Source of the DNA: Pseudomonas phage PhiPA3
Reading direction: 5' to 3' (one strand)
DNA: 64,000 nucleotides
Sequence record: HQ630627.1
In this document: positions 62,347 through 63,784 of the stretch, piece by piece
Numbering within the stretch: the first letter of the stretch is position 1
Layout: each line of letters begins with the position of its first letter
Translations under genes and position numbers: made by a program
Notes under the pieces: generated by a model
Database searches by the model: none
What the model saw: the letters and a program-made list of their open reading frames with translations, nothing else
What the model was told of the DNA's origin: nothing

Positions 62347-62544
62347 TTAAATACCCAGCAGTTTAGACACACGAGCTACCAGGGCAGCTTGGATATCCGG
62401 TTTAGTCAGAAACTCGCCTTCCAGTGTGGCGGCGTGAGAGTCAGAGCCCAGGGACCGAACGATAGCTTCGGCCCCCAGTTCAGCAACAGCGGTCAAAACT
62501 GCTACGTTCTGACCGTGTGCAACGTTACTACTTAGCTTTTGCAT
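62347..62544 (-). CDS. RNAP beta subunit extreme C-terminal segment (65 aa from an internal ATG; +1 frame relative to the upstream beta fragment)
   Basis: LTAVAELGAEAIVRSLG matches beta [20 protein letters not shown]; C-terminal ALVARVSKLLGI matches beta [19 protein letters not shown] RBS 6 nt before the ATG. Confidence 0.5.
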   Translation of the reverse strand: MQKLSSNVAHGQNVAVLTAVAELGAEAIVRSLGSDSHAATLEGEFLTKPDIQAALVARVSKLLGI

Positions 62545-63784
62545 TTGTGGTTCCTCGATATACGCCTGCAATATGCTTGGACAATGCACGGAGCAAAATG
62601 CTCGTGGTTGAAATGAGTTTAGGAGACATTACCATCCGTTCCTCTACAGAAGTATTGCCGAAGATCAGATCAATCGGAGTACCGTCTTCCGTTTCGTTAC
62701 GACCTTCCATTACCCGAGAGATAACAGTTTTCATCTGGTTACCGAGTACACCTTTATCACCGACACCACAAGAGATGTCATGGTCGATATAGATGCGGAT
62801 AACCATGTGGTCTGGTTCAAGGATTTGACCTTTCACACGGAACGACGAATCCACTTCACCGGTAAACACCGGTTGATTCAGAGACTTCGCAATATCTGCA
62901 CGTTGTTTGTCAGAGGCGCGAGCGATCGCTTGCAGGTTCTCGGACATGTCTTCGATGTCACCATGATAGTAACATTCGATCTTCGACACAGTACCGACAA
63001 CTTTAGCACGCGGGGTGTGCGCAGCCAGTCGACGCAGCGTTTCAATAGCCGCATCGCCAAACAGCGTGTTCTCTGCGGTTTCGGGGTCTTCGATTATACA
63101 TAGAATTGAATTCAGGTCGACATGGTCTCCCCGCTTCACCAATTCTGAAACATGTTGATCAAAGCGAACAGTGATGTTCTTAATGTCGGTGGTCTGTGTT
63201 TGTAGGCGCACAGCCAGTTCTTTCGAAATGGTTGAGCCGTCCTCCAATGTATCGAGGTTATCACAGAAAGCCACCGTTGCCATACATCCAGCTTTCCACA
63301 ACACTTGGCCCGGAGCATAACGGTCCGCAGTGAAGTACTTACGGTTGTACGCGATCGTATCACCATGTTTGAACTTGTCACCTTTCTTCAGATCAGTTAC
63401 CAAGTCATGTGGATAGTTCACACCAGCAGCGGTGCCATGAACGATCCCCAGAGGCGAACTCACGATTTCTCCATCAGCGTATTTAACGGTAATGCCATGC
63501 TCGTCAACCGAGATAACTTCACCGTCTTGTTCAGCAGCAGTAGCGAAGATGGAACTGGTACGCTGTGCTACAATTTGCTCGTAGCCGGTACGCACTGGAG
63601 TTACTTCGTAACCATCAGCATAGATACCTTGCTGTTGCTGAATACTGATAAATCCGACGCGTTTCATCGAGATCTTCAGATAGTTCGTTAGACTATCCCG
63701 TGCGTTTAAGCACTGCTCTAGGCTTTCCCTAGATGTCGAGACTATATCTTCCCCTACGTGAGAGGCTTCCCATTTCGAGCCCAC
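62528..63784 (-). CDS. multisubunit RNA polymerase beta subunit, C-terminal half (split-gene fragment as in phiKZ-like phages)
   Basis: [14 protein letters not shown] matches [47 protein letters not shown] matches [56 protein letters not shown] matches [47 protein letters not shown] matches GTPVDIVLNPLGVPSRMN (E. coli RpoB numbering ~650-1120); GTG start. Confidence 0.75.
   Translation of the reverse strand: [418 protein letters not shown]

Follow-up and report, generated by a model that had tools for sequence, protein, structure and literature searches.

Does the β subunit of the virion RNA polymerase (vRNAP) of Pseudomonas phage PhiPA3 end in a reading frame of its own? The question arises from two overlapping minus-strand frames in a 64,000-nt stretch of the PhiPA3 genome (HQ630627.1; referred to here as the window, whose positions are used throughout). 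The larger open reading frame (ORF), of 418 aa, occupies 62528..63784, and the shorter, at 62347..62589, lies in the +1 frame relative to it; both are read directly from the DNA, which bears out the coordinates given in an initial annotation of this locus. Depending on whether translation begins at a GTG (62589) or at an ATG (62544), the short ORF comprises 80 aa or 65 aa. The initial annotation took the short ORF to carry the final β motif and offered three explanations, namely that it is a separate, coupled polypeptide that splits the polymerase once more, that it is joined to β by a +1 frameshift, or that the frame change reflects a sequencing error or pseudogenisation. As set out below, it is instead very likely that the large ORF consists of the second exon of the gene for the N-terminal β subunit (β-N) together with the 3′ end of an intron, that the C-terminal subunit (β-C) is encoded elsewhere, and that the short ORF is an independent gene for a protein of 65 aa.

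The large ORF contains a putative second exon of the β-N gene

Translation of 62531..63667 gives a 379-aa sequence identical to AEH03632.1, deposited as PhiPA3 'protein 209'. Its match to phrog_3148 ('RNA polymerase beta subunit') has E = 6.7e-175 and covers profile positions 1051-1423 of 1424, and phmmer aligns the sequence to residues 566-656 and 820-911 of the 1119 residues of Thermus β in the PDB, alignments that take in GDK...GNKGV and DGTPVD. The corresponding motifs in the large ORF are GDK, GN..VISR and DGTPID, and the exon spans the equivalent of approximately residues 676-1125 of Escherichia coli RpoB. The earlier assignment of the 418-aa ORF to β holds for these motifs, and is supported by the Thermus alignment, but does not hold for codons 1-39, which are intron sequence. 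We assign the remainder (63667..62531; 62528..63667 on the minus strand when the TAG stop at 62530..62528 that follows the 379 codons is included) to exon 2 of the predicted vRNAP β-N gene, that is PhiPA3 gp209, the homologue of phiKZ gp178.

Searches with tblastn matched exon 2 in 309 jumbo-phage records. Because homology in these records stops at residues 348-373 of the 379, the C terminus of β-N is ancestral and not the product of a truncation, and the predicted natural end of the protein, in PhiPA3 as in approximately 300 jumbo-phage records, falls at about E. coli β residue 1125.

A group I intron accounts for the start of the large ORF

A minus-strand match to the Rfam group I intron family RF00028, complete over the model (1-253), lies at 63716..63997; it scores 59.9 bits (E = 1e-13), the gathering score being 50. 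The gp178 protein of phiKZ reads through the sequence ...EHDD, and exon 2 of the window, from 63667 on, aligns directly after EHDD. At the same site in phage HPP-Temi, directly after ...GAT GAT, there is a homologous intron of approximately 340 nt (about 2955..3297 of the HPP-Temi locus record, L001) that is too short for an endonuclease gene and whose sequence from base 29 on is collinear with the window. Together, the continuity with phiKZ gp178 and the collinearity with the HPP-Temi intron place the probable 3′ splice site after G63668, so that exon 2 would run from 63667 to 62528. Codons 1-39 of the 418-aa ORF (63784..63668) are thus intron sequence that happens to be read in an open frame. 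Several stems of the PhiPA3 and HPP-Temi introns seem to differ by paired changes.

An intron in PhiPA3 gp211/gp210/gp209, inserted after two conserved aspartates, has been described (Birkholz et al., bioRxiv 10.1101/2023.09.30.560319), and the intron in the window is this same intron. Its membership of group I, as predicted here, is indicated by a score above threshold together with splice sites that restore a protein of the phiKZ gp178 type. The 3′ part of the intron, 333 nt in length, occupies 63668..64000 (minus strand) and continues past the end of the window; the 5′ part of the intron, its HNH endonuclease gene, the 5′ splice site and exon 1 all lie beyond that end. The position of exon 1 explains why no N-terminal half of β was seen when the locus was initially annotated.

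The remainder of β is probably encoded 29 kb away

Were β-N the only β polypeptide, its end near RpoB residue 1125 would leave β without a C terminus. The polypeptides of the phiKZ vRNAP are gp178, gp149, gp180 and gp80 (PMC8287921), all of which co-immunoprecipitate (PMC10612078), and in phage SPN3US the C-terminal vRNAP β subunit is gp218 (PMC5694885). The order of genes around 32866..33540 is the same as that of phiKZ gp147-gp149, which singled out the 224-aa ORF at 32866..33540 (minus strand), approximately 29 kb from the short ORF and in the same window, as a candidate for β-C. Its translation (32869..33540) is 100% identical to a PhiPA3 protein named 'RNA polymerase beta subunit', and it matches phrog_3233, which bears the same label, with E = 7e-96. 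By tblastn, this gp149 homologue was found in 291 phage records, as a stand-alone protein of approximately 220 aa.

Two segments of the gp149 homologue can be matched by eye to the end of E. coli β: GDSKGARLSAPEIQVNASKGLNNMVLELIKFRGGD to a 32-residue C-terminal stretch, and PSQTKSNLTLSVYLKGMHL, at the C-terminal end of the protein, to a 20-residue stretch. The protein has an equivalent of the C-terminal motif (GARLSAPEIQVNASKG) and the terminal helix. Alignment with hhalign of a profile built from 37 gp149 family sequences against full-length RpoB gave a score of 25 over residues 1161-1310 (136 columns), whereas no other 300-residue segment of RpoB, nor RpoB reversed, scored above 17. The top 19 Foldseek matches to an AlphaFold 2 (AF2) model of the gp149 homologue (pLDDT 66.5) were all RNA polymerase (RNAP) β chains, each with E of approximately 0.1-2. 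Taken singly, each of these remote-homology scores is modest. Searches of PDB sequences with phmmer, and with hmmsearch using the gp149 family profile, returned no polymerase match, Pfam gave nothing for the gp149 homologue, and BLASTP against the RpoB tail likewise gave nothing; the relationship of gp149 to β is visible only by comparison of profiles with profiles and of structures. A Pfam search of 20 large ORFs of the window for parts of β or β′ also found no polymerase domain, the proteins having diverged too far.

The 224-aa protein thus appears to be the C-terminal subunit of β, of the gp149 type, with SPN3US gp218 as its putative counterpart, although no further β sequence had been recognized in the window when it was initially annotated. 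It corresponds to approximately RpoB residues 1141-1311 and then continues to the terminal helix. Since β-N extends to about RpoB residue 1125, the two proteins would together make a complete β to which the short ORF need contribute nothing.

The short ORF shows no detectable relationship to β

The proposal that β truly ends in the short ORF, which would then be one more fragment of the split polymerase, draws on the location of this ORF directly after the β gene and on a likeness, judged by eye, between AELGAEAIVRSLG and the E. coli sequence ALEAYGAA...IRSLGI. We were unable to substantiate this likeness by any comparison. BLASTP gave no alignment, at E values up to 100, between the short ORF and the C-terminal 82 residues of E. 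coli RpoB. Profiles of 11 or 26 family members aligned to RpoB by hhalign with scores of 10-17 (E = 0.33-0.7), the level obtained with reversed RpoB, and hhalign between the short-ORF and gp149 families found nothing. RpoB 1041-1342 was not reported by the family hidden Markov model (HMM) with all filters off, and Pfam, in which β regions H-I are represented by RNA_pol_Rpb2_7, gave for the short ORF only a chance match to ICAT (E = 0.1). An AF2 model of the 65-aa protein (pLDDT 78.8) is a two-helix hairpin, with a helix at residues 2-32, a loop, and a second helix at 48-63. The best PDB match to this model in Foldseek had E = 6 and no polymerase chain was among the matches, although this evidence is weak, as a helical model of 65 aa discriminates little.

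The likeness of AELGAEAIVRSLG to the end of E. coli β involves only a few residues and is due to chance. With β already accounted for by gp209 and the gp149 homologue, we regard it as extremely unlikely that the short ORF is a β terminus. It is better described as a putative separate gene whose product has no detectable relation to β; the suggestion of a separate coupled polypeptide is borne out insofar as the gene is separate, but not insofar as its product was to be a piece of β and to add a split to the polymerase. The short ORF is not the β terminus, and neither an extra split nor a frameshift is needed.

The short ORF is predicted to be a conserved protein-coding gene

Family searches provided the short ORF with relatives of its own. 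It matches phrog_21542, a family of unknown function, along its whole length (positions 1-65 of 65; E = 5e-32), and its homologues include PHIKZ177.1 (YP_009639922.1) and 201phi2-1 gp272, with identities of 57-80% overall and of approximately 60% to phiKZ. An indexed protein search returned only 3 matches, owing to the limits of the word index, and we hence used tblastn and exhaustive HMMER searches. The former found the short ORF in 66 Pseudomonas phage records. The latter, against 1.84 billion representative sequences, gave 16 matches, 15 of them stand-alone proteins of 64-75 aa and none of them fused to another protein. The sixteenth match, a repetitive bacterial surface-type protein of 1514 aa (P0127), was judged spurious, its score being driven by repeats: 13 repeats of approximately 45 residues (…AQTCLVAEVGTDTLF…) together give it 73 bits with the small-ORF profile. 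Both the profile match and the position of the gene place the short ORF in the PHIKZ177.1 family, as judged from sequence. The slot between the gp178-type and gp177-type genes is kept in Pseudomonas phages, RTH11, RP12, SPN3US and Eowyn. A collection of 15 billion proteins does not include the exact 65-aa sequence, and gp208 and gp209 have consecutive accessions, from which we conclude that the gene is unannotated in PhiPA3.

Over the 171 bases of the short ORF that do not overlap β, dN/dS ranges from 0.06 to 0.48, with synonymous divergence near saturation, whereas pN/pS is approximately 0.9-1.4 in the other two frames, which contain 1-8 stop codons. This pattern indicates that the short ORF is under purifying selection and is, by prediction, protein-coding. 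An alternative is that the short ORF is untranslated and is conserved through constraints on RNA or on neighboring genes, a possibility in keeping with its lack of annotation in PhiPA3 and with the lack of any peptide record for a 177.1-type product in the sources checked. Several findings weigh on this side of the question and against an independent small gene as we picture it. The phiKZ RefSeq entry tags 177.1 with 'RNA sequence analysis' while its neighbors 177 and 178 are tagged 'ESI-MS/MS analysis', and 201phi2-1 gp272 has no mass-spectrometry note while its neighbors have one. The proteomics supplements of Fossati et al. hold no entry for 177.1, and those of Gerovac et al. give it only RNA-level rows; in the RNA-seq table of the latter its transcript level tracks that of gene 177. 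In addition, the AF2 model of the 65-aa protein was built on four sequences, and only the best of the models reached a pLDDT of 78.8, the other four lying at 55-67; and the translational coupling proposed below is argued from geometry. A search of the literature on gp177.1 and PHIKZ177.1 found no paper. Set against an untranslated frame are the low dN/dS outside the overlap, with stops confined to the other frames, the retention of a length of approximately 65 aa across deep divergence, and the presence of a start codon and a ribosome-binding site in every lineage; we consider such a frame very unlikely. The predicted 65-aa product would yield the peptides LSSNVAHGQNVAVLTAVAELGAEAIVR and SLGSDSHAATLEGEFLTK.

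The junction contains a conserved start site and no conserved frameshift signal

Comparison with related phages bears on both remaining explanations of the frame change. We aligned nine junctions from several genera (PhiPA3, HPP-Temi, PA1C, phiKZ, 201phi2-1, Phabio, Viktualia, D6 and Psa21), for which the consensus is ...(C/A)GAGGAA NNNNNA ATG (C/G)AA AA. ..A A(A/G)T A(A/G). Across 9/9 junctions the 17-nt overlap holds its place, as do the ATG and the GAGGA, and the asparagine codon of the β frame that makes the ATG is always AAT. In PhiPA3 the Shine-Dalgarno-like GAGGAA (62556..62551, minus strand) lies within the β coding sequence, in codons R-G, and 6 nt 5′ of the ATG at 62544, an arrangement that the initial annotation had described correctly. 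The 17 nt shared by the two genes (62528..62544, minus strand; ATGCAAAAGCTAAGTAG) contain the end of the β-N gene, with its stop codon, as well as the beginning of the small gene. The overlap of 62 nt reported previously is obtained by counting from the GTG at 62589, and falls to 17 nt when counted from the ATG that we judge to be the true start. We rejected the GTG, and with it the 80-aa version of the protein, because the stretch between the GTG and the ATG is not conserved and a stop directly precedes the ATG in three relatives.

A programmed +1 frameshift near GCU AAG UAG would fuse the short ORF to β-N and add approximately 59 residues to it. The short frame is indeed +1 relative to β, the A-rich codons GCA AAA GCT AAG TAG lie beside the stop, and the junction is strongly conserved. 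What is conserved, however, is the ATG, with its invariant AAT, and a GAGGA that lies 6 nt before the ATG and approximately 20 nt before the β stop, that is, at a distance suited to initiation and not at the approximately 3 nt of prfB-type shifting. Moreover, in 201phi2-1, Phabio and Viktualia a TAA in the short frame directly 5′ of the ATG would confine any shift to five codons, and these vary from phage to phage (AAA GCT, AAA TCA, AAA GCA) with no slippery motif conserved.

The comparison that decides the matter is with more distant relatives. In Xanthomonas phage RTH11, Ralstonia phage RP12, Salmonella phage SPN3US and Klebsiella phage Eowyn, an ORF of 56-97 aa lies between the β-N gene and the gp177 homologue, and it begins 3-99 nt after the β stop, without overlap. 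Scores against the family HMM are 26.5 bits for RTH11, 24.1 for SPN3US and 18.0 for RP12, and only 3.2 bits for Eowyn. Between the β-N stop and the small gene of RP12, SPN3US and Eowyn there are GC-rich hairpins with T-rich runs that resemble terminators (at about 3620..3717, 3653..3699 and 3632..3682 of locus records L011, L012 and L013, respectively), an arrangement that suggests, for these three phages, cotranscription of the small gene with gp177 and not with the β gene. The homologues in RTH11, RP12 and SPN3US are thus separate genes, some of them behind hairpins, and 15/15 genuine family members have 64-75 aa and no fusion partner. A programmed frameshift, which these observations leave unsupported, is in our view highly unlikely. 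The free-standing position of the gene in distant relatives and its conserved start codon in Pseudomonas phages argue instead that the short ORF is a separate gene.

As to a sequencing or assembly error, or a mutation that is turning the gene into a pseudogene, nothing beyond the frame change itself speaks for it. The same arrangement is present in 66 independently sequenced phage records, including those of phiKZ, 201phi2-1, Phabio, Psa21, D6 and Viktualia, and the exon 2 protein of the window is identical to the deposited PhiPA3 gp209. The relatives, in which a single in-frame β gene would have pointed to an error, consistently show the two-frame junction, as do the nine aligned phages, a comparison that refutes this explanation and leaves it with a probability close to nil.

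Proposed expression and role of the 65-aa protein

On the basis of this geometry, we propose that the small gene (62347..62544, minus strand), a predicted stand-alone homologue of PHIKZ177.1, would be translated from its own ATG at 62544 with the aid of the GAGGAA six bases upstream. Because its start precedes the end of the β stop by 17 nt, β-N and the small gene are probably translationally coupled; the overlap seen in Pseudomonas phages may reflect compact packing, of which coupling would be a likely consequence. The product is a predicted two-helix protein. The next gene of the operon, on the minus strand at 60550..62337, encodes gp208, a 595-aa head protein homologous to phiKZ gp177 and SPN3US gp243; its translation is identical to AEH03631.1 ('protein 208') and matches phrog_3841 with E = 1.5e-148. 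In the junction sequence, gp208 starts 9 nt past the small-gene stop and has its own GGAGA. The locus is an ordinary, tightly packed phage operon, and its arrangement is already annotated in related phages.

The absence of mass-spectrometry tags or notes for 177.1 and gp272, and the absence of SPN3US gene 242 among the virion proteins named in PMC5694885, suggest that the small protein is probably not an abundant component of the virion. The fixed place of its gene in a module of β-N, small gene, gp177, gp176 and prohead protease leads us to the tentative guess that it may help, without being part of the virion, to assemble the polymerase or the head. A more specific version is that the 65-aa protein is an unrecognized small partner of the vRNAP, for example a chaperone for the assembly or packaging of β-N. 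This would fit with the maintenance of the gene after β-N in Pseudomonas, Xanthomonas, Ralstonia and Salmonella jumbo phages and with the overlap of its start with the β-N stop in Pseudomonas phages, and if true it would mean that proteomics has missed a conserved part of a virion polymerase system that is still unsolved; we nevertheless think it rather unlikely.

Neighboring features of the window

Several other features of the window touch on this module. The last approximately 115 residues of gp208 (60550..~60900, minus strand) form an extremely acidic tail rich in Glu, Asp and Ala, which lies outside the PHROG profile, the match being to residues 1-478 only. Antisense to gp208 and the small gene there is a 439-aa ORF (61216..62535, plus strand); since the family match of gp208 fixes the coding strand, this is most likely a shadow ORF. 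Downstream of gp208, a 228-aa ORF (59550..60236, minus strand) without a PHROG or Pfam match separates it from the gp176 homologue. No gene is annotated at this position in HPP-Temi or PA1C, and the only one in 201phi2-1 is gp270, of 86 aa; the ORF may be a lineage-specific insertion in the conserved head and polymerase module.

The gp176 homologue itself (58818..59540, minus strand) matches phrog_2926, 'virion structural protein', with E = 2.6e-98. The protein in the same position in SPN3US, the gp176-type gp244, has been described as the C-terminal subunit of vRNAP β′ (PMC5694885). If this role applies by analogy, a fragment of β′ is probably present in the window despite the lack of an NADFDGD motif. 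Elsewhere in the window, a protein of 1093 aa (25493..28774, plus strand) contains collagen triple-helix repeats (PF01391, E = 6e-22) and shares its size and position with phiKZ gp146.

Discussion

Previous records of phiKZ-type phages already cover the split of β, the intron of PhiPA3 and the small gene that follows. To these we add one small point, which is that a conserved gene of 65 aa is missing from the PhiPA3 annotation between gp209 and gp208. The frames, coordinates, ribosome-binding site and β motifs of the initial annotation have stood up well, while its claim of a β terminus has not, and the intron and the β-C gene had escaped it. The significance of the finding is small, and the 65-aa family is a reasonable, low-priority candidate for studies of virion polymerase assembly and packaging. 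The locus also illustrates how a reading of sequence, whether automated or by eye, can mistake an ORF extension derived from an intron, together with a small neighboring gene, for a frameshifted polymerase.

With respect to the intron, the closest known system is the mobile intron of PhiPA3 gp210 (Birkholz et al.), which is in the same phage and at the same insertion site after Asp-Asp; the difference is that the window keeps only the 3′ 333 nt, without the endonuclease gene or the 5′ splice site. The introns of HPP-Temi and PhiPA3 are homologous and occupy the same site, but that of HPP-Temi is without an endonuclease gene whereas that of PhiPA3 has one, and a comparison of the two could reveal the gain or loss of this gene.

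The β polypeptides of PhiPA3, encoded by gp211/209 and by the gene for the 224-aa protein, are orthologous to those of the phiKZ-type split β (gp178 and gp149 in phiKZ; gp241 and the putative counterpart gp218 in SPN3US). The split is at the same position of β in approximately 300 jumbo-phage records. PhiPA3 shows nothing beyond the known split, and the small ORF adds no fragment to it. The small gene, for its part, resembles PHIKZ177.1 and 201phi2-1 gp272 in length, in its 17-nt overlap with the gp178-type gene and in having gp177 downstream; PHIKZ177.1 is annotated in phiKZ, whereas its PhiPA3 counterpart is missing from the GenBank annotation.

The junction invites comparison with two further systems. 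Like a prfB-type +1 frameshift site, it has a +1 frame beside a stop and a Shine-Dalgarno-like element upstream. Unlike such a site, it has no slippery codon of the CUU-U type, the spacing of its Shine-Dalgarno element is wrong for shifting, and its downstream ORF has a conserved ATG of its own and has homologues elsewhere that stand apart from β. The resemblance is closer to the translationally coupled gene pairs of phages and bacteria, in which the start codon and Shine-Dalgarno sequence of the second gene likewise lie inside the 3′ end of the first and the overlap is short, although at 17 nt the overlap in PhiPA3 is longer than the common 1 or 4 nt.

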